From Candidatus Daviesbacteria bacterium (GTDB lineage Bacteria > Patescibacteriota > Microgenomatia > Daviesbacterales > UBA10151): a DNA stretch of 64,000 nt. Made by a program: the position numbers and the translations under genes. The notes beneath the pieces are model-generated. The model searched no databases. It was given only the letters and a program-made list of their open reading frames with translations, and had not been told where the DNA came from. Position 1 is the stretch's first letter, and every line of letters begins with the position of its first letter. Shown piece by piece: positions 1 to 64,000 of the stretch. The stretch spans positions 84,368 through 148,367 of the forward strand of contig CP066688.1 of NCBI GenBank assembly GCA_016432425.1. The letters run 5' to 3'.

Positions 1-2328
1 AATACTTAAGTTATGTCCCTGCTCATTTTTCTCTATAGCAAACTCACCAGCTCCCACCTGTTTAAACTCTGCTTGGCCTTCAAAATCTCCACCTTTAATT
101 AAATTTTTATTATCCAACTGAATACTCAGCCTATGTTTACCGGAAGTTAAATTAATATTTTTAAAATAAACATAAGTATCTGTGACTCGATCTATCTCCC
201 AAGAAGATGGTACTCCATCAAGTTCCAGACTAATCTTTTTCCCCAATTCATAGTTTATCCCAAACTCTTCCAGATGATATCTTTCCAGAATGGGCATATA
301 GACACTTCCATTTTGAATTTCAAATTCAAAGTGGACTTTTGATAAATCATATACAGCAAAACGATCTTTCAGGTTAGACGGTGCACTATTAAATTGATCT
401 AGTGAGGAAAGTTGAGAATTATTTGCTAAAATTAGATCTTCGGTTAAATCCAAAATCTTAGGAATTGATCTAACTTGGTTGTCATCAGGATTTATTAAAA
501 TACTTTTTTCATCCAAAACACCTATAAATTTTTCCCCATTTTTATAAGGATACCCAAAAAACAACTTGTCAGCAGAATAAACTTTGGGCAAAATATCCGC
601 TTGAGGAAACTTATAAAAATACCAATCTCCAAAATGTGAAAGTAGTGATTGCGTAGCTCCATCAGATAGTTTGGGCGATAGACTTTGCTGATCTTTTTTC
701 TCAAAGATCATCCCGATATTTAGTTTAGCTGACAAATTTTTTGCTAAATCTATCTGATTTTTTTTTAAGCTTAAATTAAATTCTTTAACCAATCTGGCAA
801 TAGGCGCATCCGGAGTATTAAGGGAAGAATAAAGAAGTTGTTGGTCGCTCAAGAGGGATAGAATCGATTCTATCCCTCTATAACCCCATTTAAAATTTTC
901 TATTTCATCATCAGGATAGATTATTATTCGACCATTATTTTGATTGTCCAGCCATTGCTTTGCTGAAAAAACATATTGTGGAAACTCAACATAAAAACTA
1001 TCATTTCTTCCTGGTCTAAATATTTTACCTGTTATAAGCGGGTAAGAGTAAATTAAATTAGCCAAAATAAGAACTGACACCGAAACAGGAACCAAAATCT
1101 TTAAAAGAGAAAGTCTTTTAATATTAACTTTACTCAAGTTATAAAAAAAGAGAGAAATTAAACCAGCATAGGAAATTATCACCAATGGTGTAAAGATATA
1201 CCAAGGGCTTCTAAATATTGAAAAGAAAGGTACTCTATTTACCAATTCTCTATAAAAAGTACCCGTTGGCAGATGTGTACCTGCCCCTAAAAAAGATCCC
1301 ACTGCTATCATTATGGCAAAGGCTATATAGTAGTGTTTATTTTTCTTATCAAAAATTAAAAAAGAAATAAAAGCAAGAAAAGGTATCAAAAAGCTAAATA
1401 TAATAAAAGGAATTTTATAAAAATAATTTAGAGCATAGGGAATATACAAAGGAGTATTAGTTACTTCATCAAAAGTATACCAGTCCCACGCACCCTGTAA
1501 TCTTAGTACGTTTAAAAGGCTGGTATTTTCTGAGAGGCTGTCTATCCAGTTGGTAAATCCTAATTTATCTATACTTCCAATAGGAGAAATGTTTCCCAGG
1601 AAAAATAACGCAGTAGGCAAAATCCAAAATAAATTAATCGTAAAAACTAACCCACCAATTAGAAAAAAATTCCGCAACCCATTAATAAATGCCGCCTTAC
1701 TTCTTTCGCTTAAAATCTGGCCTATTAAATAAATAAAAATTGCCAGATAAAACGTAAAAAAATATGATGGATTTATCCCCGCACCCGATAGTATTATACC
1801 TGTTAAGCTAGAGAGGATCACAACATTCGGTAAAGTGATTTTTCCCATCTTTAGAAGAGTTAACAATCCCAGCCCGAGCGGCAAAGCAGCAATCAAGGAT
1901 AAATTGGAAACTTTAACATTCTCCCAAGTATTAAAAAGATAGGTATTGAAAGCGTATAAAGTAACAAACAATAGTTGGATTAATCTATTACCTGGCAAAA
2001 TTAACCTGGCAAAAAAATAAGCCGATAAGCAAATCAGGGTAAACCAAAAAACTAAACTGGTAATTTCAACTAATTGTAAATTAAAACCTAATTTGTAAGG
2101 GATAGCCTGTATTAAATGAAAAAAAATCCCAGCGGTAGAAGAGGAAAAATCTGATCCGGCATTCAATAGATCGTTCCAAACAAACAGTCTTCTGATAAAC
2201 CATAGACCGGGATCAAGAGGAAAATTAGTATCAACACCATTTATTAAAACGTTTCCTTTACCAAAAAACCAAATTAGGGGAGTAAGCCCCAAAATAGCTA
2301 GTGGAAGGAATTCAATTAATTTTTTCAT
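1..2328 (-). CDS. Large polytopic GT-C-type membrane glycosyltransferase, AftD/DUF3367-like N-terminus. Partial: the start codon is at 2328 and the reading frame is open to position 1, so the C-terminus lies outside the window.
   Basis: I translated the minus-strand frame by hand (MKKLIEFLPLAILGLTPLIWFFGKGNVLINGVDTNFPLDPGLWFIRRLFVWNDLLNAGSDF...) and spot-checked it at seven points along 1..2328 with no stop. It is absent from the ORF track because no stop falls inside the window. The D-T-x-F-x-L-DP...F..R....W motif resembles the AftD/DUF3367 N-terminus. It has many TM helices followed by a beta-rich C-terminal part. Confidence 0.6.
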   Translation of the reverse strand, partial: MKKLIEFLPLAILGLTPLIWFFGKGNVLINGVDTNFPLDPGLWFIRRLFVWNDLLNAGSDFSSSTAGIFFHLIQAIPYKLGFNLQLVEITSLVFWFTLICLSAYFFARLILPGNRLIQLLFVTLYAFNTYLFNTWENVKVSNLSLIAALPLGLGLLTLLKMGKITLPNVVILSSLTGIILSGAGINPSYFFTFYLAIFIYLIGQILSERSKAAFINGLRNFFLIGGLVFTINLFWILPTALFFLGNISPIGSIDKLGFTNWIDSLSENTSLLNVLRLQGAWDWYTFDEVTNTPLYIPYALNYFYKIPFIIFSFLIPFLAFISFLIFDKKNKHYYIAFAIMIAVGSFLGAGTHLPTGTFYRELVNRVPFFSIFRSPWYIFTPLVIISYAGLISLFFYNLSKVNIKRLSLLKILVPVSVSVLILANLIYSYPLITGKIFRPGRNDSFYVEFPQYVFSAKQWLDNQNNGRIIIYPDDEIENFKWGYRGIESILSLLSDQQLLYSSLNTPDAPIARLVKEFNLSLKKNQIDLAKNLSAKLNIGMIFEKKDQQSLSPKLSDGATQSLLSHFGDWYFYKFPQADILPKVYSADKLFFGYPYKNGEKFIGVLDEKSILINPDDNQVRSIPKILDLTEDLILANNSQLSSLDQFNSAPSNLKDRFAVYDLSKVHFEFEIQNGSVYMPILERYHLEEFGINYELGKKISLELDGVPSSWEIDRVTDTYVYFKNINLTSGKHRLSIQLDNKNLIKGGDFEGQAEFKQVGAGEFAIEKNEQGHNLSI
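852..879. repeat. 28-bp perfect palindrome agagggatagaatc|gattctatccctct inside the coding sequence of the AftD-like gene
   Basis: Read directly from the sequence. The two 14-nt arms are exact reverse complements with no spacer. It encodes RGIESILS. Confidence 0.85.
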
Positions 2329-4402
2329 ATATTTTTAACTCACTTATAACCCAAGGGGCAAACTGATGATATCCAATTTGGTCAATACGTAAAAATCTGG
2401 CCAAAATATGTGGTAAGTATATCTCAACCACCCCGTTTTGCAAAGGCGGACGTCTTTTATCCCAAAAAACTTCCTGCCAATTTTTACTGTCCAGAGAAGT
2501 TTCTATTTTATAACCCACCTCATTTTGATCTTTATTCTCAAAAGAGTCGACAGTAATTTCTGAAATTTGTACATTTTTCCCTAAATCAATAGTAAAATAT
2601 TGTGGTTTAAAATAAGGTGTTTGAGAATTCCAGTAAGTTTCTCTTTGACCGTCAATAGCTAATCTTGTCTCTTGTTGATTGTAAGAGGCAGCAGAAATCA
2701 CCGACGATAAATCCGTTTCTCTTTTTTTGTCAAAAATACCGGTAATCTCACCCCTTACTCTACCAGTTATGTTAACAATTTTTTTTTGGGTGGAATCATA
2801 GGAAATTCCATATACTGATTCTATGGGTAAATTATTTTTAGTTAGTGTTTTTACCAGATTATCTAAATTCCAAAAGAAACCAAAACCTAAATTATCATAT
2901 TTTTGATAACCTTCATCTTTAATATCCCACAGAAACTCATTGGTAAAAAAAGGAGGAGGAATTTTCTGCGACTGTCTGTAATTGACTAGAAGCGTCTGCC
3001 CTAACCCTGATTGGAAAGGTAATATCCGATCTGTTAAACCATAAAAAGGCTTATCAGATTCGGCAAAAATGACAGTCTCATCTTCTAAGTGCGAAATAAC
3101 AGTTTTAATTTGGGACAAAATATTTTGGCGTTCATGGCCTTCTATAACCAGCCCATTAATAGTTTCCTGAAGTAACAATAGATGGGCTAAAGTTAACAAA
3201 ATTAGTAAAATAACAACTGCGAATTTTAAATATTTAGCATCTTTAAAAGAGCCAACTAAAGCTACTAAAATCATGCTCATCCCCAAAGTAGCAGGATATA
3301 AGTATCTGGAGTCTAGCAGTAAAGACTTATTTACTACCGGCAGTAAAGGAATCGATGTAAAAAAAATTATTAGCCATCCTATTATGGCTAAATCTTTTAA
3401 AAGAAGGTTTCCTTCATTACTTTTTATTTCCGAAGGAAAGAGGGTTCCCCTCATTCTTAAGAGAAGCAATCCGCTTAAGATAAGTAAAATAAAAATGGAT
3501 GTAAAAATTATAATTTGGTCATCAGAAATATTAATATAATATCCTGAATATTTGGTCATTGAATCAGAAATATCAGAAGATTTATCTGTTAATTTAACAT
3601 ACACATTTAACGGTAAAAGGGTTTGGGCAAATAACTGTGGGGGGATGGATAATTGATTATATATTATTCTATCAATGATATTTCTATTTCCAGACACTAC
3701 AGCAGATTGATTATGGACACTAAAAAATCCAAATGACAATCTTAAGATAAAATAAAATCCTAGTATAATAAAAATAGAAAATAATAATTTTCTTTTTTCT
3801 TTTACTTTTGCCATAATTATTAGAGTTATTAAAACCAAAACAAATGTAAAGGCAGTTTCTTTAAAAAGAAAACTTAAAAAGATAGTAAGTAAACTCCATA
3901 TAAAAAATTTAAATTTCCTTTTTTGTCGGTAAAGTACATAAAAAGTAAGCGAGACTATACCAAATAAGGCGGCTCCTTGGGTACCTTCAAAAGTACCCAG
4001 CCAAGTTACTGCCTGGTGATGGCTGCTATTTACCAAAAAAAAGATTGCTGCAAGACTTGCCAGATATTTCTTTGTAGTAAGTAAATAAATTAAACTGTAA
4101 AGAACAATACCGGTTAAAAAATGAAGTAAGATGCTGACATAAAAATAATACTGAGCATTTAAACCTACTATTTTATAAATAATCATTTTGACAGTAAGTG
4201 ATAAAGGAGTAAAATGGCCAAGTTCCCCTCCAGGAAAAACGTTTCTTAAGAAATCGATAGGGGTGAGGGAGTTTAAATAAATATAATGGCCGAAGCTATG
4301 CCATTCATCTTGTTCAAAATAAGCCCATGGCAAATCTTTAAAAACAATAAAAGTAACTACAGCTATCAGCAGAATTGGCCAATATTTTTTGCAGATTTTC
4401 AT
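2312..4402 (-). CDS. GT-C (PMT/ArnT-like) membrane glycosyltransferase with C-terminal F5/8 type C (discoidin) domain
   Basis: 696 aa with about 10 TM helices. Loop-1 acidic motif YFEQDEWHSFGHYIY, compare the PMT motif FDEVHFG. The C-terminus has ...QYFTIDLGKNVQISEITVD...YKIETSLDSKNWQEV..., which matches the discoidin fold. Confidence 0.7.
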   Translation of the reverse strand: MKICKKYWPILLIAVVTFIVFKDLPWAYFEQDEWHSFGHYIYLNSLTPIDFLRNVFPGGELGHFTPLSLTVKMIIYKIVGLNAQYYFYVSILLHFLTGIVLYSLIYLLTTKKYLASLAAIFFLVNSSHHQAVTWLGTFEGTQGAALFGIVSLTFYVLYRQKRKFKFFIWSLLTIFLSFLFKETAFTFVLVLITLIIMAKVKEKRKLLFSIFIILGFYFILRLSFGFFSVHNQSAVVSGNRNIIDRIIYNQLSIPPQLFAQTLLPLNVYVKLTDKSSDISDSMTKYSGYYINISDDQIIIFTSIFILLILSGLLLLRMRGTLFPSEIKSNEGNLLLKDLAIIGWLIIFFTSIPLLPVVNKSLLLDSRYLYPATLGMSMILVALVGSFKDAKYLKFAVVILLILLTLAHLLLLQETINGLVIEGHERQNILSQIKTVISHLEDETVIFAESDKPFYGLTDRILPFQSGLGQTLLVNYRQSQKIPPPFFTNEFLWDIKDEGYQKYDNLGFGFFWNLDNLVKTLTKNNLPIESVYGISYDSTQKKIVNITGRVRGEITGIFDKKRETDLSSVISAASYNQQETRLAIDGQRETYWNSQTPYFKPQYFTIDLGKNVQISEITVDSFENKDQNEVGYKIETSLDSKNWQEVFWDKRRPPLQNGVVEIYLPHILARFLRIDQIGYHQFAPWVISELKIYEKIN

Positions 4403-5103
4403 TTCTGTGCCATTACCATGGCATATGATGCATGCAGATAATCAATTCCTGAAAAAAAATCAGATATAGGAGAAAATAAGGGATAGAAACCTATACCTTT
4501 TTTATAAATAATCTTAAATCTGTAGTTTCTTAAAAGTTGAATAAGGGATTTAAAAGTCATCACATTTATATGCGGATCCATTGGCAAAGTATGCTGATAA
4601 AATTTAGCAGAGGGACGATGCCCAATGGGATATACTTTACTCAAATATGGGCCTGTATATGGTTGATTACCTAAAATTAAAGCCATGATATTGTGGTAGG
4701 CAGCTAAATTTTCTGTAGAAATAATAATTTTCCCGCCCTTTTTTAAGACTCTTTGACTTTCGGAAAAAAAATTATCTAAATTCACCAAATGTTCCACTAC
4801 TTCTGTAGCAGTGATACAGTCAACACTACTATCTCCAAGAGGCCATCTTTCATTTAAATCAGAATTATAGACTTTTATCCCTTTTTCCCTAGCAAGATTA
4901 GCTCTTTCAGAAATATTCTCGAATCCTAAAATTTCATTAGTACTAATAATTTTAGCTCGACTGATAGTCTTTGAACCATTATCACAACCACAATCAAGAT
5001 ATGTTAAATTTTTACCTCTAGGTAAAAATTCTGCCACATGTTTTTCAATATCATCTTCTATTTTAGACGCTAAAAATTTTATATAACTTTGTATAAAACC
5101 CAT
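4399..5103 (-). CDS. Class I SAM-dependent methyltransferase
   Basis: Motif I LDCGCDNG and motif post-II VDCITATEVVEHL. I chose the start at the M of MGFIQSYIKF, giving a TAATG stop/start overlap with the upstream GT2 gene. The longer ORF start at 5181 would overlap the upstream gene by 79 nt. Confidence 0.8.
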   Translation of the reverse strand: MGFIQSYIKFLASKIEDDIEKHVAEFLPRGKNLTYLDCGCDNGSKTISRAKIISTNEILGFENISERANLAREKGIKVYNSDLNERWPLGDSSVDCITATEVVEHLVNLDNFFSESQRVLKKGGKIIISTENLAAYHNIMALILGNQPYTGPYLSKVYPIGHRPSAKFYQHTLPMDPHINVMTFKSLIQLLRNYRFKIIYKKGIGFYPLFSPISDFFSGIDYLHASYAMVMAQK

Positions 5104-6041
5104 TATATAAATTTCCTCTTCAGGAAAACTATTCCATAAGTCATAACTGAGATAAATGACATCAAAGGATGCAGCAACCAAGCTTTATTTCTGGTTTCTA
5201 AATAACCTATTAACCCTTCAATCAAAGGGCCAATAAAAGTTACGCAATAAATAATACTATAAACAAACTTTATTGGCGAAACCCCCTCTAACCAGGTACG
5301 TTTTTTTTCTTCCTTTCTGTTTAAAAACTTGTTGCCAATTTTAAGTCTTTTAGAAATAAAATCTCCCAAGGATGAGATATGGTCATGATAAATGCCATAC
5401 CCGGGGACCCGGGCAAACTTGCGAAACCCTTTTTCCATGGCAAAAAAAGAAAAATTTGATTCTTCAAATTTAGGTTTATATAACCCCACCCCTTCTATCA
5501 CTTTTTTATTCCACAAAAAACCATTAGCGCCTAAAGGATAAACTGAACCCTGAGGAATAGTATATTCAATATAGCCATTTTTATTTCTTTGCCTTAGGTT
5601 AGCAGCCAAACATCTGGAGAAGGGATCGGCAATATGAATTAACATGGAATAAGCATTAAAAATATTGTCATGTTCCCGGGGGAAATACAAAGATTCCACC
5701 CCAAATAAATCCGGATCTTTTAAAAAGGGTTTGACCATGACAGTCAACCAATCTTTTTTGATAATTTCATTATCAGCATCCAACAATACTATCACTTCCC
5801 CTTGAGAATGAATAATCCCCAAAGACTTAGCACTTTCCGGATCTCTTTGGGGATTATCAATCACCTTGGCCCCAAAATCTTTGGCTACCTTTCTGGTTTC
5901 ATCTTCTGACCTACCATCCACTACAAATATTTCCACCAGATTCTTGGGATAATTTTGCTTTTTAATGCTTGCTAAACAAATTGGCAGTTGTTTGGCGGCA
6001 TTATAAGTGGGGATGATAAAACTAACTCTAGAATTTTTCAT
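5103..6041 (-). CDS. GT2 family glycosyltransferase with C-terminal TM segments
   Basis: SFIIPTYNAAKQLPICLASIKKQNYP...VVDGRSEDETR...LLDADN (GT-A fold with a DxD motif). Confidence 0.8.
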   Translation of the reverse strand: MKNSRVSFIIPTYNAAKQLPICLASIKKQNYPKNLVEIFVVDGRSEDETRKVAKDFGAKVIDNPQRDPESAKSLGIIHSQGEVIVLLDADNEIIKKDWLTVMVKPFLKDPDLFGVESLYFPREHDNIFNAYSMLIHIADPFSRCLAANLRQRNKNGYIEYTIPQGSVYPLGANGFLWNKKVIEGVGLYKPKFEESNFSFFAMEKGFRKFARVPGYGIYHDHISSLGDFISKRLKIGNKFLNRKEEKKRTWLEGVSPIKFVYSIIYCVTFIGPLIEGLIGYLETRNKAWLLHPLMSFISVMTYGIVFLKRKFI

Positions 6042-10073: not shown

Positions 10074-10874
10074 TTATTTAGACAATTTTTCAACACGCTC
10101 TAGAATATTTTTTTTAGGTTTAAGAAAGATTTTATTTTTTATACCGGCCCTTGTTAAAAGATAAAGAAATAAAATTTTGAATGTACCAAGTGAATAACGA
10201 ATACTATTTTTAAGTGTTGCCCCTCTTTTTTTACCAGTATAATTTGTTTCAACTGGTACTTCATCAATTTTAATGTTCCAAAAGGACGCCTGAGCAATTA
10301 ATTCAAAACTAAAAAGATAATTATTGGAATTATTTTCAAAGCTAACTTTTTCTAAAAGTTCTTTGGTATAGACTCTAAAACCTTGGTGCAAATCACCTAT
10401 TTTTGTTCCTAAAATTAGACTATCAACGGTATTCATCAAAAATATAGGAATAAACTTCCAAAAATACATTCCGCTTTTTAAGGGTTGATTAATATAAGTA
10501 AAACGATTTCCGAGAATAAATTTACTGCCATTTTTTATTTTTTCCAAAGCTAGAGGGATGGCATTTGTTTTATATTCACCGTCTGGGTGAATATCTATAA
10601 AAACATCCCCCCCTCTTTTTATCCCCAAAGCCAGAATTCTCTTTAAATTTCCTCCATACCCTAAATTAATGGGATTCTTATAAGCGTGTATCCCTAAACT
10701 TTTGGCCAACTCATATGAATGATCAAAAGAAGCATCATCAACTAAAATAATATCATCAACTAAATGCCGAGGAAAATTTTCATAAAATTTTCTTAAAGTA
10801 CGGGCGCAGTTATATGCTATAAAAATAGCCACAATTTTCTGTTTTCTTGTTTCTGTAGGTTTCATAAAATTCAA
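10074..10874 (-). CDS. GT2 family glycosyltransferase
   Basis: IVAIFIAYNCARTL...LVDDAS...DIHPDGE (GT-A fold). Confidence 0.75.
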   Translation of the reverse strand: MNFMKPTETRKQKIVAIFIAYNCARTLRKFYENFPRHLVDDIILVDDASFDHSYELAKSLGIHAYKNPINLGYGGNLKRILALGIKRGGDVFIDIHPDGEYKTNAIPLALEKIKNGSKFILGNRFTYINQPLKSGMYFWKFIPIFLMNTVDSLILGTKIGDLHQGFRVYTKELLEKVSFENNSNNYLFSFELIAQASFWNIKIDEVPVETNYTGKKRGATLKNSIRYSLGTFKILFLYLLTRAGIKNKIFLKPKKNILERVEKLSK

Positions 10875-22204: not shown

Positions 22205-22225
22205 ATAATGATAGAATAATACACT

Positions 22226-25136: not shown

Positions 25137-25173
25137 GCAAAATATAACAACTTAAGCTATTATATTTTGTGGT

Positions 25174-41302: not shown

Positions 41303-41303
41303 A

Positions 41304-47429: not shown

Positions 47430-47436
47430 GAGGTTT

Positions 47437-55825: not shown

Positions 55826-55841
55826 TATCTAATTGTACAAA

Positions 55842-57449: not shown

Positions 57450-59086
57450 TGATTAGTGGGTACTAAACGATACAATATCTTGCCGGAAGGTGAATAAACA
57501 TCCAAAATTGACTGAACCTGAGAGGGAAAATCTTCCGGCTCTGAAACTATCAAGGCATCTTTCCTGAGACTGTCTTTTTTGCGCCAATCTATTCCCTCAA
57601 AATAAAAATTGCCCAAATTCCAACTCTCCAGCTGATCTACATATAATTTATTGGATTTTTCATATCTTAACCAATTCGGGGAAGATTTTTGAAAAACTTT
57701 GGGGTCCATTTTCTCGTAAAAAGCGACAAATATTTGCGGTTCAGTAAAATGTTTAGAGATAACAATCTGGCTGTAGCGATCCTTCACAGATAAAATTTTT
57801 TCAAAGACTGTATCATAACCAAAACGCACATTATCAATTGGTCGTTGAGGTAATTTAATAAAGTAAAAGTGTAAGAAAAAAATAAACTGGGTAAACAGTA
57901 TCACTGTGACAATTCTTCCCCATGGTAAATTGGCAAATTTAGTCTTTAGGTAATCAATTAGACTAGCTGCACCAATCGCCGATATTATAACGGTTAGAGG
58001 GAGAAATGTCGGCACCCGATTAGCATTCAGACTTCCGGTAGCCAAAGCTGCACCTACTGGAGAGACTAAAAACCACCAAATTATTATTTCTTTATTAGCT
58101 AGTTTTTTAAAGAAAATTTCCTTAATAGCAAATATCCAAAAAATAAGCTCTACTGTATAAAGCAGCGCAAACCTGGGAAAATTTAAATAGGTGTTATCCG
58201 GCCTTCCTCCGGTAAAAAAGAAAGTAGGAGAAAAATAAGACAGGTAATTTTCTGTTAAATTATTTTTGATAAATAAAAATTTATTGTCAAAAATTTTATC
58301 TAATAAAGGAGGCAGTGGAGAAGTACCTTTGGATTTAAAATAACTCATGATTTGTTCACTGCTAAAAATTCCTACATCGGAAGCTCTGGTGGAAATGTTT
58401 CCCCAATTAATAAGGAGGGGGGATAAGAAAATAAAAAGACCCAAACTTAAATAAATAATTCGCTTTTTAGATTCTGCCCGCAGAAAAAATGCACCTAATA
58501 TAAACAATACCAGCAAGACTCGAAAAGAGTGGTAGGTATAAAAAGTTAACCCCCAAAATATAATGGTGGGAAGAAAAAATTTGTTTTCTTTTTTTAATTT
58601 TAGAAAAAATAATAACCCCAAACTGAAAGTTAAAATTCCTAATCCACCTTCCCAGGCAGTACGGGAAATTTGTATAGACCAGGGGGAAATAGCCAGCAAA
58701 AATGCTGCCCACAAAGCAATATTTTCTTTTTGGAAAAGTTCCTTAGTTAAAAAATATGCTACCAAAACAGTGAGTATGCCTACCAGGGCAGCAGGTAACC
58801 TGACCGAGACCATGTTCAAATCAAAAATGAGTAGCGAGGGAACTGTTAAATAAGTATAAAGAGGCGGCTTAAAATCTCCAAACCCCCGAGGATTAATCGG
58901 TAAAGTTTCTCCCCATTCATCCTTGCCGGTTTGCAAAAGCGAATAAGCGCTGTAACCTTGTTGAGCTTCATCACCGGTAAAACCATTGGGGAATTTATCC
59001 AAACTAATTAGTCTGACAGCTGCAGCTAAAATAATTATTAACAATAAGATAATTTTACTCGTAGAGAAGATTTGCTTAATTTTCAT
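57446..59086 (-). CDS. GT-C glycosyltransferase, GT39/PMT_2 family, tandem paralog 4 of 5
   Basis: FTGDEAQQGYSAYSLLQTGKDEWGETLP...ISPWSIQISR. Confidence 0.75.
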   Translation of the reverse strand: MKIKQIFSTSKIILLLIIILAAAVRLISLDKFPNGFTGDEAQQGYSAYSLLQTGKDEWGETLPINPRGFGDFKPPLYTYLTVPSLLIFDLNMVSVRLPAALVGILTVLVAYFLTKELFQKENIALWAAFLLAISPWSIQISRTAWEGGLGILTFSLGLLFFLKLKKENKFFLPTIIFWGLTFYTYHSFRVLLVLFILGAFFLRAESKKRIIYLSLGLFIFLSPLLINWGNISTRASDVGIFSSEQIMSYFKSKGTSPLPPLLDKIFDNKFLFIKNNLTENYLSYFSPTFFFTGGRPDNTYLNFPRFALLYTVELIFWIFAIKEIFFKKLANKEIIIWWFLVSPVGAALATGSLNANRVPTFLPLTVIISAIGAASLIDYLKTKFANLPWGRIVTVILFTQFIFFLHFYFIKLPQRPIDNVRFGYDTVFEKILSVKDRYSQIVISKHFTEPQIFVAFYEKMDPKVFQKSSPNWLRYEKSNKLYVDQLESWNLGNFYFEGIDWRKKDSLRKDALIVSEPEDFPSQVQSILDVYSPSGKILYRLVPTNQ

Positions 59087-60737
59087 TTGGATTAGCCGTT
59101 ACTAAATAAAAAATTACTTCCCCGCTGGGGGAGCGAATTGTCTTTACTAATCTCAAATTAGGGTTATCTAAAATTTTAGGATTAGTAACATCCTCTCTAC
59201 TGGAAGCCAGGAAAAGCTGTCCATTTTTTAAATTATTTTCAAATGGTCCAGCGAACTTTCCAAAATAATATTTTTTCTCTAAAGCAAATCCGTCAAAATT
59301 AGTAGTAATATCTTGAATAACTTTATCACCGGAAAATTGCTGATGAAATTTATTGGGATCATATTTCGTCCAAAATAAAAACCTAATTAAAGATGGCTCA
59401 TAACTATTATTAATATAAATTTGGGAGTATTGGTCCTCCTTTGCAGCTAAGTATTGCATTGGCTCTTTAAATCCAAAATTCCATGCCCTCCACGACTCTT
59501 TAGGGTAATGTTCAAAATAGCGATGCAGGAAAAAGGTAAAATTCACTATTCCTAAAATAATTAGACCCAATGCCAAATACCTTCTGAAAGATCCCTGATT
59601 TATTTTAGCAAGTAAATCATTTATCCCCCAGCCAATTAAAATAGACAACGGTGCCAACATTAAAAAATTCCTGGTAGCATGGAATCCCCCATCAAAAGTT
59701 AAAGCTGCCGGGATGGGGGAAATTAGTAGCCAACCAAATACCACCCATTTTTCTTTTTCTTTTTTATACAATAGAAACCAAATCCCCGCTATTAATGGAA
59801 TTAATTCATAAAAGTAAAATTGCCCCATTCCATGGACAGATTGGCGGAAATTAGGATCTCCATTTAAAAATAAAAACTCCGGAGAAAAAGCCCGTAAATA
59901 ATTTAAGGTAAACACTTGCAAATAAACCACTGGTTTATTGTGAAACACTTTTTCCAGATTGAAAGGGAGATTTTCATTTTGCTGGGCGAGTTGGACTTGA
60001 TCTTTTAATGATTGTTCGGAAAAAATACTAATTAAATTAAATCTTGCTCCGGCAGTTCCCGAAAGCCAATTACTTCCATAAGGAGCTAGTACTACCAAAA
60101 ATATTAGACCTGCCAAAAGATATTTGGGGAGGTTTTTAAATAATTCATTTCGATAAAGATAAACTAGCATTAGCACCAGTAGCGGCATGAATAAAGTAGC
60201 CGTACTATAAATATAAGGCGTTAAAGCAAATAATATGGCTGAAAAATAAAACCAGAGGTAATTTTTGACTCCCTTAAGAAAAAGAAAAGTTGCCCAAATT
60301 AAAAATGCCAGCAGCATGGTAACTTCAAAACCGGCCCGGGAAAAATGTATGTGCCAGGGAGAAATAGTAAGGATTAGGGCGGCGAATAGTCCTATTTTCT
60401 CACCAAATAAATGTTTTGCTAAGAAGAATAATCCTCCAATACCTAAAATCCCCCAGAACGCGGCTGGAATTCGCACTCCCCATTCGTTTAAACCAAAAAG
60501 TCCAATTGTGGGCACAGCTGAATATAAAAATAGAGGCGCCCGATATTCTGACAGAGAATGGAAAAATACCGGCAATTTTTGGCCGTACAGATCTTGCCCT
60601 GTTTTTAAAATGGAATAAGCCTGGTAACCTACGTCCAGTTCATCTCCAAACAGCTCAACCGGCACTTTATCCAGTTGATAAACCCGCAGGGTGATAGCCA
60701 GGATTAAACTTACAAGTAACAGGAAATATTTTTTCAA
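59076..60737 (-). CDS. GT-C glycosyltransferase, GT39/PMT_2 family, tandem paralog 5 of 5
   Basis: LFGDELDVGYQAYSILKTGQDLYGQKLP...GLFGLNEWGVRIPAA...ISPWHIHFSR. Confidence 0.75.
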   Translation of the reverse strand: MKKYFLLLVSLILAITLRVYQLDKVPVELFGDELDVGYQAYSILKTGQDLYGQKLPVFFHSLSEYRAPLFLYSAVPTIGLFGLNEWGVRIPAAFWGILGIGGLFFLAKHLFGEKIGLFAALILTISPWHIHFSRAGFEVTMLLAFLIWATFLFLKGVKNYLWFYFSAILFALTPYIYSTATLFMPLLVLMLVYLYRNELFKNLPKYLLAGLIFLVVLAPYGSNWLSGTAGARFNLISIFSEQSLKDQVQLAQQNENLPFNLEKVFHNKPVVYLQVFTLNYLRAFSPEFLFLNGDPNFRQSVHGMGQFYFYELIPLIAGIWFLLYKKEKEKWVVFGWLLISPIPAALTFDGGFHATRNFLMLAPLSILIGWGINDLLAKINQGSFRRYLALGLIILGIVNFTFFLHRYFEHYPKESWRAWNFGFKEPMQYLAAKEDQYSQIYINNSYEPSLIRFLFWTKYDPNKFHQQFSGDKVIQDITTNFDGFALEKKYYFGKFAGPFENNLKNGQLFLASSREDVTNPKILDNPNLRLVKTIRSPSGEVIFYLVTANPNEN

Positions 60738-60807: not shown

Positions 60808-61599
60808 TTAGCCTAAGGTTAGTTTACGGCGCAATCTGGCAATCAAGAAGATTAAATTTAAAATTGAACCTTCAATAAAACCATGGTAAATGTAAAGAGA
60901 TTTTCTGTTTAACAATGCCCGATCTAAACTAGATTTAGAACCTCCCACCAGATGTTTAATGTAAACTCCGGGGAAATAATAAACATGCTTTCCAGCTCTT
61001 TTGATTTTTCTGCACAAATCAATGTCTTCATAATAAAGAAAATATCTTTCATCAAACCCCTTAATTTCCTCAAATAATTTTTTACTGACTAACATGGCCG
61101 CCCCATAAACCGCCCCTACTTCAATAGGATGATTAACTGCTGGAACATATTGACCAAACTTATGTTTAATTCCTAAAATATATTCCCTAAAAGCTTCCCA
61201 GATGGTGGGTAAATTTCTAACAGAAGCTTGTATGGTGCCACTACTTTCGATTAATTTCGGCCCGACTAACCCCGCGTCTTTATCTTCATAAAAGCTAACC
61301 AGCTCATCCAAAATTGGTTTCTCCATTTGGGTATCAGGGTTTAGGAAAAATAAATACTGTCCCCTGGCCGATTTAACTCCCAAATTATTGCCTTTGGAAA
61401 ATCCCAAATTTTTATCTGATAATATTAGCTTAACATTTTTAAAATTTTTAATTTTTAAAGCTGTATCGTCATTGGAATGGTTGTCCACAATAATTAGCTC
61501 ATCCTTTGGAGAAATATTTTTTTGCACTGAAGAAATAAAGTTTTCAATTGAGCTGCCGTTGTTAAAACTGACAGAGATGATAGAAACTCTAATCGGCAT
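60808..61599 (-). CDS. GT2 family glycosyltransferase
   Basis: VSIISVSFNNGSSI...IVDNHSNDDT...FLNPDT. Confidence 0.8.
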   Translation of the reverse strand: MPIRVSIISVSFNNGSSIENFISSVQKNISPKDELIIVDNHSNDDTALKIKNFKNVKLILSDKNLGFSKGNNLGVKSARGQYLFFLNPDTQMEKPILDELVSFYEDKDAGLVGPKLIESSGTIQASVRNLPTIWEAFREYILGIKHKFGQYVPAVNHPIEVGAVYGAAMLVSKKLFEEIKGFDERYFLYYEDIDLCRKIKRAGKHVYYFPGVYIKHLVGGSKSSLDRALLNRKSLYIYHGFIEGSILNLIFLIARLRRKLTLG

Positions 61600-62449
61600 A
61601 ATTAATCACCTCTAAATCTGATCTTGTACCGCCGGTTGTTTTTTTAATCTCACCTTTTTTGATAAAAGCCCACCCAAAAGGAATCCAATAACCTATTCCC
61701 AGTCCCCCCAATAATCTTTTGATTAAATTAATGCGGTGCTCAGTTAATAAATTTTTATCGGTAATATTTTTCCAGATAAATAATAGTTGGTTACGCTCTT
61801 GGACTTTTGCTACAAATTTGCTGGAGTGAGTTTTGCCAATAGTGGTACCGTGCTGATGATAAACTAAAGATTTTGGCTCCCATAAAATATTGAAACCTGT
61901 CTTTAAAGCCCTAAAAGAAAGGTCAATATCTTCCCAATAAAAAGGAGCAAACAGTCTGTCAAGCCCTCCTAAGCTTTGCCAGATTTTTTTATTAAAAGCA
62001 GCTGATCCCCCGGAAGCCCAGGCACTTTGATGCATTCTACTATCTTCTTCTGTTTTGACAAATTCATAATAACCATTTTTCCAGCAACTTTTCCCCCACC
62101 CCTGGCCCTCCTCATGGCAATTAACGGCAAATATTTTTGAGTCTCTAAAATGTTTTAGTAGTGGTTTTAAAAAATTTTTATCTACCAAAACATCGTTATT
62201 TAGCAGCACCACTATTTCTCCACTGGCCTCATTAAACAATTTGTTAACCGAGCTAACAAAACCCTTGTTTTGTTGATTAATCAATAATTTAACTTGGGGA
62301 AAATTTTCTTGAATAATTTTAATGCTCTCATCTTTTGAGGCATCATCATTAACCAAAACCTCATCTGCACCGGCAGCTAAAATATTGGGTAAGTTTTTGG
62401 GCAATAATTCTTCCCCGTTATAGTTAGGAATGGCAATTGTTACTTTCAT
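61589..62449 (-). CDS. GT2 family glycosyltransferase
   Basis: VTIAIPNYNGEELL...LVNDDASKDES...LLNNDV. Start chosen at MKVTIA, giving an ATGA overlap with the upstream gene. Confidence 0.75.
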   Translation of the reverse strand: MKVTIAIPNYNGEELLPKNLPNILAAGADEVLVNDDASKDESIKIIQENFPQVKLLINQQNKGFVSSVNKLFNEASGEIVVLLNNDVLVDKNFLKPLLKHFRDSKIFAVNCHEEGQGWGKSCWKNGYYEFVKTEEDSRMHQSAWASGGSAAFNKKIWQSLGGLDRLFAPFYWEDIDLSFRALKTGFNILWEPKSLVYHQHGTTIGKTHSSKFVAKVQERNQLLFIWKNITDKNLLTEHRINLIKRLLGGLGIGYWIPFGWAFIKKGEIKKTTGGTRSDLEVINYAD

Positions 62450-63654
62450 GAATTTTTTAAGGTTCGCCAACTTAAGCTTAAGGCTGAGGCGGCAAAAATA
62501 GTGGCAGCAAAGCTCCTGACCAGCTGTAACTTATCAGCACTTAATATTTCCGCCAAACCATTTACTTTATCTAAACCGGGCCAAAGGGGAGCAAATAATT
62601 TTAACTGCAGAGAACCGTCAAAAGAAAAAAACATGATCAAAAGACCCAAAAGCAGTCCTAAAATAGGCAGCAGTTTATTTCTATTTTGCTCACCGACAAA
62701 CCAGAGGATTAGGAGCGGGGTAATCCATAAAAACCATTGGATATGAAAATGGGTAAATGCTAAAACCGCTGTTAAACTGATGAGGGAAAAATTTAAAAAA
62801 TCTCTGTACTGTCTTTTTTTAAAAAAGAAGATAAAATATAAACCTAAAATTATGATGGGCACAATTAAAATATTTTCACTGCTGGAAAGGGGCAAGCTAG
62901 CATATAAAGACTTATCCAACTGGGGAGCAAATAAAGCACGGGTGCGAAATTCTGGAGAGTTCAGATAAGGAATAACGGTAATTAGAAAAGGAACCAGCGC
63001 TAAAGCAGTGAGCTTTAATCTTTGGCCCCAAGAGGTAGCCATTCCTAATAAATAAGGCAGCAGCAAAATGGGGGCGGACTTAATTGCCCCTCCCAAACCT
63101 AAAGATAAAGCTCCCAAATCTAGTCGGGATTTTTTAATTAATAACAAAGTTAAAACAATAAAGAAGGTCGCATAAACATCTGCCTGGCCAATTCCGGAAG
63201 AAACCCATAAGGAAACCGGATTAAAAATCCACAACACTGTGACTTTTTTTCTATCTGCAAAATTTACTATCTGTAACAGCAAAAAAGCAATCAGTAAATC
63301 AAAAATAATAAACGGCAGTTTGACGTATACTAAATATAACCATAAGGAAGGATTGCCAAAAAGAACACCTTGACTGCGTAAAAATAAATCTTCCGTTTTT
63401 TGATCAACTAAAATTCTGCCGATCATATGTCCGGGCAAGGAAATAAAATAGCTGAGTGGCAAATCATCTAAAATATCCTGGTTAGAAATTTTTGGCGCTA
63501 CTTCATAAAAATTTAAACTTGTCCTTTGAAATAAAACTGCGCTGGAGAGGGCTGGAGTACGGACATCAGGATGAAAAGTAAAAGCAGCAATAAATAGCCG
63601 CAATATTAAACCAATTAAAAAAAGGTACCACAGCCTATTAATTTTTTCCACCAA
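62446..63654 (-). CDS. Polytopic membrane protein of unknown function (possible GT-C or Wzy/ligase-like)
   Basis: 402 aa with about 11 TM helices. No diagnostic motif recognised. Confidence 0.45.
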   Translation of the reverse strand: MVEKINRLWYLFLIGLILRLFIAAFTFHPDVRTPALSSAVLFQRTSLNFYEVAPKISNQDILDDLPLSYFISLPGHMIGRILVDQKTEDLFLRSQGVLFGNPSLWLYLVYVKLPFIIFDLLIAFLLLQIVNFADRKKVTVLWIFNPVSLWVSSGIGQADVYATFFIVLTLLLIKKSRLDLGALSLGLGGAIKSAPILLLPYLLGMATSWGQRLKLTALALVPFLITVIPYLNSPEFRTRALFAPQLDKSLYASLPLSSSENILIVPIIILGLYFIFFFKKRQYRDFLNFSLISLTAVLAFTHFHIQWFLWITPLLILWFVGEQNRNKLLPILGLLLGLLIMFFSFDGSLQLKLFAPLWPGLDKVNGLAEILSADKLQLVRSFAATIFAASALSLSWRTLKNS

Positions 63655-64000
63655 TGATCCTTTCTATACGTAGACAGAAATTTTCCTTACTAAAAAACTT
63701 AGCTTTTTCAATGGCATTTTGGGCCAGCTGCCCTCTTAAAGAAGTATCTTTGACTAATTTAATGGTCTGATTTTCTAATTCTTCTAAATCATTCCACAAA
63801 AAACCGTTTTTGCTTTGTTCGACTATTTCTCTTTGCCCCCCCTTATTAATAACTACCGGAACACAACCAGCTGCCATAGCCTCTACTGTAGTAATGCCAA
63901 AATGTTCCATCTCTACCGGATCTTCCACCCCAAACCCCGCGCTATGCCAGTAAATACTGGACTGTTTATACAGCTTTAATAATTTCTCATAAGGATAGTT
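63638..64000 (-). CDS. GT4 family glycosyltransferase, C-terminal part only. The N-terminus lies beyond the window edge.
   Basis: EHFGITTVEAMAAGCVPVVINKGGQREIV (Glycos_transf_1). The frame is open through position 64000. The GTG start the ORF track gives at 63928 is internal. Confidence 0.7.
   Translation of the reverse strand, partial: NYPYEKLLKLYKQSSIYWHSAGFGVEDPVEMEHFGITTVEAMAAGCVPVVINKGGQREIVEQSKNGFLWNDLEELENQTIKLVKDTSLRGQLAQNAIEKAKFFSKENFCLRIERIIGGKN

Follow-up and report, generated by a model that had tools for sequence, protein, structure and literature searches.

How does a bacterium with a tiny genome build its sugar coat from a locus that encodes 17 glycosyltransferases predicted to work on the outer face of the membrane, without the usual starter enzyme? 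The combination suggests an unusual and unstudied way of building such a coat. The locus belongs to a groundwater bacterium, Candidatus Daviesbacteria (CPR/Patescibacteria; assembly GCA_016432425.1, contig CP066688.1, positions 84,368-148,367), and we call this whole stretch of 64 kb the window. All products of the 53 open reading frames that tile it were scanned against Pfam, with the gathering score as cutoff. Glycosyltransferases make up 33 of the 53 genes (17 GT-C, 11 GT2, 4 GT4 and 1 GT9), which confirms the core observation of an earlier note on this DNA, a glycosylation supercluster dominated by GT-C enzymes. A further 11 genes have carbohydrate- or lipid-carrier-related domains; the note's figure of about 50 glycan enzymes is generous, as the remainder are eight generic class-I SAM methyltransferases, which lack a glycan-specific signature, and one DUF5667 protein. 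The island continues beyond the window edge and takes up ~8% of the 820-kb contig. Its left flank (7.7 kb of the true source contig) encodes 2-3 further GT-Cs and a carbamoyltransferase, bringing the GT-C total to at least 19-20. We read the locus, with a probability of roughly 60%, as a conserved island of very large size that builds a cell-envelope glycan, mainly by a GT-C route with lipid-monophosphate sugar carriers. The GT-C enzymes of the window are:

1..2325, minus strand: g01, AftD-like GT-C with ~10 TM helices (Pfam GT-C_AftD, 33 bits against a cutoff of 26); clipped by the window edge, 1020 aa when complete on the source contig
2312..4402, minus strand: g02, divergent PMT_2-type GT-C (hhalign) with a C-terminal CBM32 (discoidin; F5/8-C) domain
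6041..8731, minus strand: g05, g02-family GT-C with CBM32 (F5/8-C domain; PDB CBM32 matches)
10902..13106, minus strand: g08, PMT/PMT_2 GT-C (Pfam), Asp after TM1
19760..22243, minus strand: g17, g02-family GT-C with a weak discoidin/CBM-like C-terminus (weak F5/8-C and CBM_AftD matches, also NADase_discoid)
23667..25136, minus strand: g20, highly divergent PMT_2-superfamily GT-C of a rare family (hhalign, distant relatives)
25174..26589, plus strand: g21, divergent GT-C, paralog of g20 (25% identity; profile comparison)
26575..28599, minus strand: g22, PMT_2 GT-C (Pfam)
31063..33180, minus strand: g25, PMT_2 GT-C (Pfam), paralog of g22 (38% identity)
39275..41302, plus strand: g33, PMT_2 GT-C (Pfam), ~14 TM helices
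49481..50620, minus strand: g42, PIG-V/Gpi18-like GT-C, identical to NCBI protein HYW45_00630
52525..60737, minus strand: g45-g49, five tandem ArnT-sized PMT_2 GT-C paralogs (Pfam), at 52525-54192, 54185-55825, 55842-57449, 57446-59086 and 59076-60737
62446..63654, minus strand: g52, GT87-family (PimE-like) GT-C

Ten of these exceed the Pfam gathering score, namely g01 (GT-C_AftD) and g08, g22, g25, g33 and g45-g49 (PMT/PMT_2). With the others backed by homologue families or profile comparison, the previously estimated number of about 17 is reproduced exactly. By hhalign, PMT_2 has divergent relatives in g02, g05, g17, g20 and g21: g02 matches the PMT_2 array with a probability of 97.5% (E 5e-12), g05 and g17 match the g02 family (99.5% and 98.7%), and g20/g21 match PMT_2 (93%). 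We found only six close homologues of g20, which has no direct Pfam match, and 33 of 40 distant relatives match PMT_2. GT2::GT-C fusion proteins occur among the relatives of the g20 family and link the steps of donor synthesis and transfer. The C-terminal domain of g02 resembles CBM32 structures in the PDB, and among the 50 PDB matches listed for its AF2 model (pLDDT 90.7) only AftD (6W98) aligned across most of the model. The tandem paralogs g45-g49 share 30-39% identity, and g49 has a single PDB sequence match, ArnT (5EZM). An acidic motif after TM1 is conserved in three sets of alignments, as an invariant Asp (within a DE motif in most copies) in the PMT_2 paralogs, an invariant QDEW in the g02 family and an invariant FHPD in the g52 family.

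The enzymes that would supply these GT-Cs with donors, and the flippase candidates, are:

10074..10874, minus strand: g07, DPM1-like soluble GT2, polyprenyl-P sugar synthase type (best NCBIfam matches PpgS, Dol-P-hexose transferase, AglJ)
13803..14531, minus strand: g10, DPM1-like soluble GT2 (best PDB match Pyrococcus Dol-P-Man synthase 5MLZ, E 2e-20, then GtrB and ArnC)
17103..18041, plus strand: g14, ArnC/GtrB-like polyprenyl-phosphate glycosyltransferase with C-terminal TM helices (NCBIfam: ArnC full-length, E 3e-54; PgfS 7e-40; AglJ 5e-25)
18038..18964, plus strand: g15, GtrB/PgfS-like polyprenyl-phosphate glycosyltransferase with C-terminal TM helices (full length; PgfS E 1e-62, ArnC 1e-45)
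37824..38714, minus strand: g31, UPF0104/LPG_synthase_TM flippase-like protein (Pfam, 50 bits against a cutoff of 33)
45400..46335, minus strand: g38, UPF0104 flippase-like protein (Pfam, 59 bits); within the window it closes the minus-strand run from g53 to g38, which we read as one operon
47437..48267, minus strand: g40, DPM1-like GT2 (best PDB match Dol-P-Man synthase 5MLZ, E 6e-15)
48222..49493, minus strand: g41, Wzx-type MOP flippase (Polysacc_synt, 59 bits)

The NCBIfam, PDB and Pfam matches uphold the family assignments of the earlier note, which had named two GtrB/ArnC-like and three DPM1-like GT2s, two UPF0104/LPG-synthase-TM proteins and one Wzx. To our knowledge, flipping of polyprenyl-P-sugars by a UPF0104 protein has never been demonstrated; phospholipids or glycolipids are the substrates of the best-studied relatives. 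The UPF0104 proteins g31 and g38 may act on glycolipids instead of polyprenyl-P-sugars. Archaeal gene neighbourhoods in which UPF0104 occurs with PMT/STT3-like and AglD-like genes led to its prediction as a glycosylation flippase (PMC5898192).

The remaining genes encode soluble glycosyltransferases and enzymes of sugar synthesis and tailoring:

4399..5181, minus strand: g03, class-I SAM methyltransferase (Pfam; the gene caller puts the start at 5103)
5103..6041, minus strand: g04, GT2 with two C-terminal TM helices (Pfam; NCBIfam matches the N-terminal part only)
8778..10052, plus strand: g06, NDP-hexose C-methyltransferase type (Methyltransf_13 and Methyltransf_14, 192 bits)
13094..13810, minus strand: g09, SAM methyltransferase (Pfam)
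14528..15205, minus strand: g11, SAM methyltransferase (Pfam)
15202..16224, minus strand: g12, GT2 (Pfam; NCBIfam)
16217..17056, minus strand: g13, GT2 (Pfam)
18965..19786, plus strand: g16, SAM methyltransferase (Pfam)
22226..23104, plus strand: g18, YdjC-family carbohydrate deacetylase, HpnK-like (Pfam YdjC, 156 bits)
23101..23694, plus strand: g19, SAM methyltransferase (Pfam)
28601..30289, minus strand: g23, membrane-anchored SGNH/GDSL acyl-hydrolase (Pfam)
30286..31059, minus strand: g24, SAM methyltransferase (Pfam)
33182..34327, minus strand: g26, GT4 (Pfam)
34329..35180, minus strand: g27, SDR nucleotide-sugar epimerase/reductase (Pfam; NCBIfam)
35182..36183, minus strand: g28, LegB-like NAD-dependent nucleotide-sugar 4,6-dehydratase (TIGR04180, 425 bits, short of the cutoff of 475)
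36269..37027, plus strand: g29, SAM methyltransferase (Pfam)
37003..37827, plus strand: g30, polysaccharide deacetylase/DUF2334 (Pfam)
38715..39236, minus strand: g32, DUF5667 membrane-anchored protein (Pfam)
41274..42680, plus strand: g34, heptose-7-phosphate kinase (HldE domain I; TIGR02198, 340 bits) fused to a PMI-like cupin (Pfam Cupin_2 and MannoseP_isomer; PDB cupin matches)
42637..43239, plus strand: g35, GmhB-like heptose-1,7-bisphosphate phosphatase (NF006506, 176 bits)
43215..44510, minus strand: g36, GT9 heptosyltransferase-family protein (Glyco_transf_9, 78 bits; TIGR02195, 100 bits, below cutoff)
44571..45434, plus strand: g37, SAM methyltransferase (Pfam)
46320..47429, minus strand: g39, GT4 (Pfam)
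50595..51662, minus strand: g43, GT4 (Pfam)
51659..52528, minus strand: g44, GT2 (Pfam)
60808..61599, minus strand: g50, GT2 (Pfam)
61589..62470, minus strand: g51, GT2 (Pfam)
63641..64000, minus strand: g53, GT4, C-terminal part only (Pfam; N-terminus outside the window, partial extension recovered)

Two gene pairs in this inventory recall the P. aeruginosa gpgSDF genes, which encode exactly the domain types GT4, deacetylase and UPF0104, make GlcN-phosphatidylglycerol and set a precedent for glycolipid flipping by UPF0104 (PMC12713373). The GT4 g39 adjoins the UPF0104 protein g38 on the same strand, and the deacetylase g30 abuts the UPF0104 protein g31, as would be expected if the island contained glycolipid-modification modules of the gpgSDF/hexSDF type, with UPF0104 flipping aminosugar glycolipids rather than polyprenyl-P-sugars. 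However, the GlcNAc-PG synthase model gives g39, g26 and g43 only 50-56 bits against a cutoff of 480, g30 and g31 are convergent and thus not co-transcribed, and such modules would cover no more than 4-5 of the window's 53 genes. We regard this reading as very unlikely; it is compatible with our main explanation if the glycolipid is the primer.

The starter enzyme and its usual partners are missing. None of the 53 window products matches Bac_transf, Glycos_transf_4, Wzy_C, Wzz, STT3 or GtrA in Pfam, in line with the earlier statement that the window has no phosphoglycosyltransferase (PGT), Wzy or Wzz, and there is no space for extra genes in the window because it is 99.3% coding with a widest gap of 85 nt. 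That note had also allowed that these three might lie just outside. The 7.7-kb left flank, the 10 kb past the g53 homologue in two relatives and two related core loci likewise lack all five (PGT, Wzy, Wzz, STT3 and GtrA); an ABC exporter is absent from all of this sequence and from the window. A PGT, STT3 or GtrA may be encoded elsewhere in the genome, for instance in the other ~750 kb of the contig.

These absences bear on whether this is instead a conventional Wzx-dependent surface polysaccharide locus (capsule, O-antigen-like or teichoic-acid-like), with its PGT and possibly its polymerase encoded elsewhere and the GT-Cs merely decorating the product. The Wzx g41 does sit among soluble GT4 and GT2 enzymes (g39, g40, g43 and g44), and a Wzx beside several of these classically points to an Und-PP-linked repeat unit, for which a PGT is needed. 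A PGT gene sometimes lies apart from the locus that it serves, as with wecA in E. coli, and the equivalent flank of one relative has a second Wzx. However, no PGT, Wzy, Wzz or ABC exporter was found in the window, the left flank or the flanks and core loci of relatives, and both potential Wzy membrane proteins are GT-Cs: homologues of g42 carry PF04188 of the PIG-V family, and g52, put forward in the earlier note as the Wzy/ligase candidate, is rejected as such, since GT87 is matched by six of six members of its family (best E 1e-9), one of which also matches the PIG-M model. Seventeen GT-Cs against one Wzx also far exceed normal decoration needs, and we consider a conventional locus unlikely.

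The most likely mechanism is stepwise extracytoplasmic glycan assembly, with polyprenyl-phosphate sugars as donors and an acceptor of lipid or glycan type. Activated sugars would be made in the cytoplasm by the 4,6-dehydratase/reductase pair (6-deoxy sugars), the heptose-7-P kinase/phosphatase pair and the C-methyltransferase, and the five GT2s g14, g15 (ArnC/GtrB-like), g07, g10 and g40 (DPM1-like) would load single sugars onto polyprenyl phosphate. Soluble GT4, GT2 and GT9 enzymes would assemble a short primer on a lipid in the membrane; as this lipid would be polyprenyl monophosphate or a glycerolipid, a PGT would be dispensable. The UPF0104 proteins g31 and g38 and the Wzx g41 would carry lipid-linked sugars across the membrane, where the 17 GT-Cs would act on the outer face, adding one sugar at a time, probably from polyprenyl-P-sugars, as all characterised GT-C enzymes do. 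CBM32-type sugar-binding domains on 2-3 of the GT-Cs may hold the growing glycan, and the methyltransferases, deacetylases and SGNH esterase would tailor the product. With its 15 strand-defined gene blocks, the island may also house several systems that work independently, and not a single pathway.

The island encodes no candidate acceptor protein. We favour a lipid-anchored or wall glycan as the acceptor, with surface proteins possible too, since the CBM32 domains of g02 and g05 (weaker in g17), together with enzymes of the GT87, PIG-V and AftD types, favour such glycans at least as strongly as proteins. Were the island devoted mainly to protein O-glycosylation of the PMT/TMEM260 type, each PMT_2 paralog would mannosylate or glycosylate its own set of secreted or surface-exposed proteins (S-layer, pili, adhesins), with elongation of the glycans left to other enzymes. 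This fits the top-scoring families, PMT/PMT_2, which are those of protein O-mannosyltransferases, the DPM1-like donor synthases, and a TMEM260_N/PMT_2 protein encoded in the left flank; TMEM260 is described as a protein-specific O-mannosyltransferase (PMC10214176). However, PMT_2 also includes lipid and glycan glycosyltransferases of the ArnT type, the only PDB sequence match of g49, and the AftD-, GT87- and PIG-V-type enzymes, the CBM32 domains and the want of an acceptor gene all make a mainly protein-directed island improbable.

The proposed mechanism resembles the mycobacterial LM/LAM, GPI-anchor and haloarchaeal Agl pathways. The mycobacterial and corynebacterial PIM-LM-LAM and arabinogalactan systems (Ppm1; PimA/B; PimE of GT87; MptA/B; Emb; AftA-D) likewise extend glycans outside the cell with many GT-Cs, take polyprenyl-monophosphate sugar donors from a DPM1-like GT2 and prime a membrane lipid inside the cell with GT4s, so that the lipoglycan branch has no PGT; the AftD-like g01, GT87-like g52 and CBM-bearing GT-Cs add to the likeness. 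However, our host is a CPR bacterium and not an actinobacterium, its genes are packed in one island rather than scattered, the window has no inositol/PI-synthase genes or decaprenyl-P-arabinose pathway, the GT4s are generic with none reaching the PimA/B model, and heptose genes and nine methyltransferases are added. In haloarchaeal Agl N-glycosylation (AglJ, AglD with a UPF0104 domain, Wzx-like AglR, GT-C AglS, methyltransferase AglP, AglB), a DPM1/AglJ-like GT2 starts the glycan on a lipid monophosphate, and thus without a PGT. That pathway also has a UPF0104 domain tied to a Dol-P-sugar synthase, a Wzx-like flippase, a PMT-like GT-C that attaches the final sugar outside, and SAM methyltransferases for tailoring. 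The island's g14 matches the AglJ model (E 5e-25), but its scores fall far short of equivalog cutoffs, the window has no STT3/AglB oligosaccharyltransferase, the host is bacterial and the GT-Cs are far more numerous. The run from g53 to g38, with its GT4s, DPM1-like GT2, PIG-V-like g42 and GT87-like g52, recalls eukaryotic and archaeal GPI-anchor mannosylation (PIG-A GT4, de-N-acetylase, PIG-M, PIG-V, DPM1). This likeness is at family level only: the island's deacetylases lie outside the run and are of the YdjC and CE4/DUF2334 families, not PIG-L, and transamidase and ethanolamine-phosphate transferases are absent from the island.

The earlier note had likened the locus to the three-component GtrA/GtrB/GtrC and CsbB-GtcA-YfhO systems. 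These too pair a GtrB/ArnC-like GT2 with C-terminal TM helices (as g14 and g15) with GT-Cs acting outside, and use an Und-P-monosaccharide donor that requires no PGT. However, the strict analogy fails on one defining part, since the island has no GtrA/GtcA-family flippase; we assume that the UPF0104 and Wzx proteins take that role. The island also has at least 17 GT-Cs for five donor synthases rather than a one-to-one pairing, and many soluble glycosyltransferases. The earlier interpretation is thus partly supported, in its families and window absences but not in this analogy or in g52. ArnC-ArnT lipid A modification is matched by the full-length ArnC-like g14 and g15, by the ArnT-sized tandem PMT_2 proteins and by the ArnT match of g49, but the island lacks ArnA, ArnB, ArnD, ArnE and ArnF. 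As a member of the CPR, the bacterium is not expected to possess lipid A.

The core operon, including the five tandem PMT_2 paralogs, has one-to-one orthologs in a related species. In a related genome each of g45-g49 has a single ortholog, 54-63% identical, compared with ~30-39% between paralogs, so each paralog has probably retained a separate role. Other Daviesbacteria repeat the core run of PMT_2 array, GT2, GT4, PIG-V-like GT-C, Wzx, DPM1-like GT2 and GT4; the array is broken up in one genome, and in one UPF0104 comes next, in the position of g38. The equivalent right flank in two relatives encodes GT4, GT2, methyltransferase, YfhO and second Wzx proteins.

The island is unusual in the number and density of its GT-C glycosyltransferases, a superfamily of polytopic membrane enzymes, and in their concentration at a single conserved locus in a reduced genome; every one of its parts comes from a known family. 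The window is tiled by 53 genes (g01 to g53, left to right) at about 33% G+C, with 99.3% of the sequence coding, 15 strand-defined blocks and no gap longer than 85 nt, and tRNA and Rfam scans found neither tRNA nor Rfam RNA in it. Glycosyltransferases account for 33 of the 53 genes: 17 GT-C, 11 GT2, four GT4 and one GT9. All 53 products were scanned against Pfam, and the other genes encode the following.

g31 and g38: UPF0104 (LPG_synthase_TM) flippase-like proteins, two
g41: Wzx-type MOP protein, one
g28, g27, g34 and g35: sugar-precursor enzymes, four (LegB-like 4,6-dehydratase, SDR epimerase/reductase, heptose-7-P kinase and GmhB-like phosphatase, respectively)
g06: NDP-hexose C-methyltransferase-type enzyme, one
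g18 (YdjC) and g30 (CE4/DUF2334): carbohydrate deacetylases, two
g23: membrane-anchored SGNH/GDSL hydrolase, one
g03, g09, g11, g16, g19, g24, g29 and g37: generic class-I SAM methyltransferases, eight
g32, 38715-39236: DUF5667 protein with an N-terminal membrane anchor

Counting g06, the window encodes nine SAM methyltransferases in its 64 kb, and sugar-specific domains occur in g06 only; this may mean that the product carries an unusual amount of methylation, or that some of the nine act on other substrates. Every gene of the window except g32 encodes an enzymatic or transport domain, and a DUF5667 gene is also present in a related island, on contig L018. Plus-strand ORFs of at least 150 aa at 45824-46318 (inside g38/g39) and 47188-47643 (inside g39/g40) were taken as spurious.

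The earlier note had put the GT-C proteins at about 17, and Pfam, homologue scans and hhalign arrive at the same 17, with g20 and g21 the least certain. Ten pass a Pfam gathering score, namely g01 (GT-C_AftD) and the PMT/PMT_2 proteins g08, g22, g25, g33 and g45-g49. The GT-Cs have 6-14 hydrophobic segments per protein. An Asp after TM1 is invariant in 14/14 aligned PMT_2 sequences, as DE in most, and is kept in g45-g49, g08, g22, g25 and g33; an acidic motif at this position is likewise seen in the alignments of the g02 and g52 families and is not invariant in that of g20/g21.

Part of what makes the set unusual is its CBM32-fused and very divergent PMT_2 subfamilies. g02 has only about 50 relatives, and all those named by their sources come from Microgenomates. 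Its family profile matches the PMT_2 array with an hhalign probability of 97.5% (E 5e-12), the family's invariant QDEW falling on the PMT_2 DE motif, and g05 and g17 belong to the same family (99.5% and 98.7% probability). An AlphaFold model of g02 (pLDDT 90.7, pTM 0.89) ends in a C-terminal CBM32 domain, and CBM32 matches dominate its Foldseek comparison with the PDB; among the 50 PDB matches listed, mycobacterial AftD is the only one that spans most of the model, with a poor superposition (rmsd ~19 Å). Sequence searches of the PDB matched no membrane domain, whether run with g02, g05 or g20 singly, with the profile of the g02 family or with g01 at full length; they matched CBM32 domains alone. 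The sole PDB sequence match of g49 was ArnT.

Two membrane proteins were considered as Wzy and rejected. g52 (62446-63654), which the earlier note had singled out as the Wzy/ligase candidate, matches GT87 only weakly by itself; taken with five homologues from related genomes, GT87 is matched in 6/6 (best E 1e-9), and FHPD is invariant directly after TM1 in the family. It is thus a GT87 GT-C, and the ligase assignment falls. g42 adjoins Wzx and has no Pfam match of its own. Its homologues number over 1,500; among the 120 listed, PF04188 (PIG-V/Gpi18 mannosyltransferases) is present in about half, and several are named accordingly by their sources, making g42 a PIG-V-like GT-C.

The five tandem PMT_2 paralogs g45-g49 share 30-39% identity among themselves. 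L006, a contig of a related genome, encodes one clear ortholog for each of them (54-63% identity); identity to the remaining L006 copies is 27-37%. The five-fold duplication is therefore old and every copy has been kept, a retention that argues for five distinct specificities.

The enzymes expected to feed these transferases are encoded alongside them. The matches of g14 and g15 to ArnC and the GtrB-type enzyme PgfS are full-length (E 1e-45 to 1e-62), and both proteins end in TM helices, so that GtrB/CsbB-type GT2s with C-terminal TM helices are present in the window. For g10 and g40 the top match is Pyrococcus dolichol-phosphate-mannose synthase, with GtrB and ArnC next, and the best matches of g07 are PpgS, a Dol-P-hexose transferase and AglJ; the two GtrB/ArnC-like and three DPM1-like GT2s reported from first reading were thereby reproduced. 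No GT2, GT4 or GT9 of the window reaches an NCBIfam equivalog cutoff, and sugar specificities are therefore unassignable. ArnC, GtrB and DPM1-type GT2s make polyprenyl-monophosphate sugars. Every GT-C enzyme characterised so far, to our knowledge, takes its sugar from a lipid-phosphate-linked donor and works on the non-cytoplasmic side of the membrane. Because of this, and because ArnC/GtrB- and DPM1-like GT2s are co-located with them, we infer that the GT-Cs of the window use polyprenyl-phosphate-linked donors; they would act on the outer face.

Flipping could be served by two kinds of protein, and the presence of UPF0104 and Wzx proteins in place of GtrA is itself unusual. The Wzx flippase g41 scores 59 bits against Polysacc_synt (cutoff 28). 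A flippase role for UPF0104 has been predicted from archaeal gene neighbourhoods with PMT/STT3-like and AglD-like genes (PMC5898192), and the experimentally closest bacterial case is gpgSDF, in which a GT4, a deacetylase and a UPF0104 protein make a glycolipid (PMC12713373). The domain types of gpgSDF/hexSDF occur in the window in g39-g38, g30/g31 and g26 and are not arranged as one operon; g39-g38 and g30 beside g31 are neighbour pairs of matching types. The window GT4s score 50-56 bits against NF053787, whose cutoff is 480. By analogy with these systems, the UPF0104 proteins may flip a glycolipid, which would fit a lipid-anchored product.

Several components of conventional loci are missing. 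No match to the Bac_transf, Glycos_transf_4, Wzy_C, Wzz, STT3, GtrA or ABC-exporter models was found by Pfam in any of the 53 products, and at 99.3% coding the window has no space for an unlisted gene, including a small GtrA. The statement that the locus lacks an initiating phosphoglycosyltransferase (PGT), Wzz and Wzy was thus borne out by Pfam on the 53 products and by the assignment of g42 and g52 to GT-Cs. PGTs of both types (WbaP/PglC, Bac_transf; WecA/MraY, Glycos_transf_4) are also absent from the left flank, the flanks of relatives and two related core loci, and STT3/AglB has no match in the window or the flanks examined. Across about 72 kb there is no PGT, polymerase or oligosaccharyltransferase, another unusual feature of the island.

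The flanks bear on this directly, since a PGT, Wzy and Wzz adjacent just outside the window had been named by the earlier note as evidence against its own reading. Two proteins tie the window to its genome, g42 being identical to HYW45_00630 and g20 to HYW45_00520, both NCBI proteins of a Candidatus Daviesbacteria MAG with a contig of 820,589 bp, of which the window alone is about 8%. These identities place the host among the CPR/Patescibacteria (Microgenomates), and the window corresponds to roughly HYW45_00425-00685. On the left, the identical Logan contig L001 reaches 7.7 kb beyond the window edge (L001 15156-22091) and encodes the following.

the remainder of g01, 1020 aa in all
an additional g02-family GT-C, 485 aa (hhalign 99.4%)
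a TMEM260_N/PMT_2 GT-C, 474 aa
a polytopic protein, 650 aa
a carbamoyltransferase (Carbam_trans_N/C) with DUF5989 and two tiny single-TM membrane proteins

The island therefore continues beyond the window and holds at least 19-20 GT-Cs. From the carbamoyltransferase sequence, the glycan may be carbamoylated. There is no PGT in the 7.7-kb left flank or in the equivalent flanks of relatives. The TMEM260 match, with those to PMT, would also fit a rival reading in which the island is purely a protein O-mannosylation system, into which its AftD, GT87, PIG-V and CBM32 features do not fit.

On the right, three independent Logan assemblies (contigs L003, L014 and L015) break at the identical base, 476 bp past window position 64000 and inside the GT4 gene g53, and the five-paralog PMT_2 region likewise fragments assemblies. 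Together these breaks suggest a repeat or strain-variable junction immediately right of the window. JGI metagenomes, searched for exact DNA matches, gave none, and right-flank content was judged from relatives as a proxy. L006 keeps gene order from the g52 homologue through the start of the g44 homologue at 50-65% identity. In two other related contigs, L005 and L009, glycosyltransferases (GT4, GT2s and a YfhO GT-C), a methyltransferase, a second Wzx and two large unassigned proteins are encoded within 10 kb past the g53 homologue, and no PGT is among them. The core run of PMT_2 array, GT2, GT4, PIG-V-like GT-C, Wzx, DPM1-like GT2 and GT4 is kept in two further Daviesbacteria genomes; a UPF0104 gene follows it in one, and in the other the PMT_2 array is broken by unrelated genes. 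Loci syntenic with the island, at 43-65% protein identity, also occur on L005, L006 and L007 (CAYMZD01, CAYIDT01 and CAZFVS01), from MAGs titled 'uncultured Gammaproteobacteria bacterium', titles that look like placeholders or errors.

The island might instead make a conventional Wzx-dependent polymer whose PGT is encoded at another locus: Wzx sits among soluble glycosyltransferases, and the sequence known to be free of a PGT is the window and the flanks examined. For this reading, Wzy and Wzz are missing from the same sequence, and 17-20 GT-Cs are left unexplained. Should a PGT be encoded elsewhere in the genome, the locus would be mechanistically ordinary, though still a polysaccharide island unusually rich in GT-Cs. 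The earlier reading stands largely in its gene content and in the lack of a PGT in the examined sequence, and gives way at g52, a GT-C in place of the Wzy/ligase candidate.

The island shares GtrB-type GT2s (g14 and g15) and GT-C transferases with the three-component Gtr and CsbB-GtcA-YfhO systems, but their GtrA/GtcA flippase (PF04138) has no match in the 53 products, so the proposed likeness to GtrA/B/C logic holds for two components of three. Wzx (g41) is shared with Wzx/Wzy O-antigen and capsule loci, whereas their PGT, Wzy/ligase and Wzz were not found in the window. The Ppm1/DPM1-like (g07, g10 and g40), GT87 PimE-type (g52) and AftD-type (g01) proteins recall mycobacterial PIM/LM/LAM synthesis in family-level matches only; the four GT4s match NCBIfam only generically when set against the PimA/PimB-type GT4s, and Pfam found no PI-synthase-type domain in the 53 products. 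AglJ/AglD-like GT2, UPF0104, Wzx-like AglR and AglS-like GT-C types of the haloarchaeal Agl system are all in the window, at scores far below equivalog cutoffs (AglJ 88 bits, cutoff 325), but its STT3/AglB oligosaccharyltransferase was not found there. Both of the latter systems start without a PGT: mycobacterial PIM/LM/LAM, like GPI anchors, by GT4s acting on phosphatidylinositol, and haloarchaeal Agl glycans by a DPM1-like GT2 acting on dolichol monophosphate.

From the observed family identities, gene order, conservation and absences in the examined sequence, we infer an assembly scheme in which the five GT2s would charge polyprenyl phosphate with sugars and soluble GT4, GT2 and GT9 enzymes would build a primer on a membrane lipid. 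The UPF0104 proteins and Wzx would flip the lipid-linked species, and the GT-Cs would extend the product outside the membrane, those bearing CBM32 holding a glycan acceptor. Methyl, carbamoyl, acetyl and deacetyl tailoring would complete it. The genes may well belong to several independent systems rather than to a single pathway. Taking the single assembly pathway further, we give roughly one chance in four to the following: that the main coat of Daviesbacteria, and perhaps of many Microgenomates, is a lipid-anchored, heavily methylated LM/LAM- or GPI-like heteroglycan, assembled almost entirely outside the membrane by about 20 GT-Cs fed with polyprenyl-phosphate sugars, without a PGT, polymerase or oligosaccharyltransferase, and that the UPF0104 proteins are the long-sought polyprenyl-phosphate-sugar flippases. 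If true, this would be a third major route by which bacteria outside Actinobacteria assemble surface glycans; for a reduced symbiont genome it would be the largest single investment.

CPR/Patescibacteria are ultrasmall bacteria, most of them uncultured, with a lifestyle regarded as largely episymbiotic and surfaces that mediate attachment to the host. About 8% of the 0.82-Mb main contig is devoted to this one glycosylation island, and the whole Mycobacterium tuberculosis genome has about as many GT-Cs as the island. If the assembly scheme is right, it would define the logic of the CPR surface coat, provide a compact conserved operon (DPM1-like GT2, GT4, UPF0104, Wzx and GT-Cs) for testing UPF0104 proteins as lipid-linked sugar flippases, and offer a natural set of diverged GT-C paralogs, some with CBM32, for the study of acceptor specificity. 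Full-text searches, including searches of CPR papers for glycan terms, found no description of GT-C-rich islands in CPR; PIM-like synthesis, predicted for one Saccharibacterium (PMC6031116), and EPS genes, mentioned for Southlakia (PMC10633639), were the only related items.

A kinase, a GmhB phosphatase and a GT9 of the nucleotide-activated heptose pathway lie together at 41274-44510. g34 (340 bits against TIGR02198, cutoff 345) and g35 (176 bits against NF006506, cutoff 178) fall just below their equivalog cutoffs, and g36 scores 78 bits against Pfam GT9 (cutoff 22). g34 joins a heptose-7-phosphate kinase (HldE domain I) to a PMI-like cupin at the C-terminus, where an adenylyltransferase domain is usual, and is adjoined by g35 (GmhB) and the GT9 heptosyltransferase g36. 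Pfam found neither a GmhA (SIS) isomerase domain nor a heptose-1-P nucleotidyltransferase domain in the 53 products; the cupin of g34 might substitute for GmhA as sedoheptulose-7-P isomerase. The presence of a GT9 is odd, since the organism is expected to have no LPS.

g20 and g21 (23667-26589) are divergently transcribed paralogs with 25% identity to each other, no direct Pfam or NCBIfam match and only six close homologues among 5.8 billion clustered proteins. An exhaustive profile search returned 772 remote relatives; 33 of the 40 scanned match PMT_2 (best E 8e-19), and three of the 40 carry an N-terminal GT2 fusion. Direct hhalign comparison with PMT_2 gives 93% probability, and by these sequence comparisons g20 and g21 are assigned to a very divergent GT-C subfamily; the AlphaFold model of g20, built from a shallow alignment, was too poor for use (pLDDT 54). 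Three of the remote relatives, P0211, P0243 and P0251, are about 710-730 aa long with an N-terminal extension of about 240 aa, and are probably the three GT2-domain carriers. Such an extension would unite a donor synthase and a GT-C transferase in one polypeptide.
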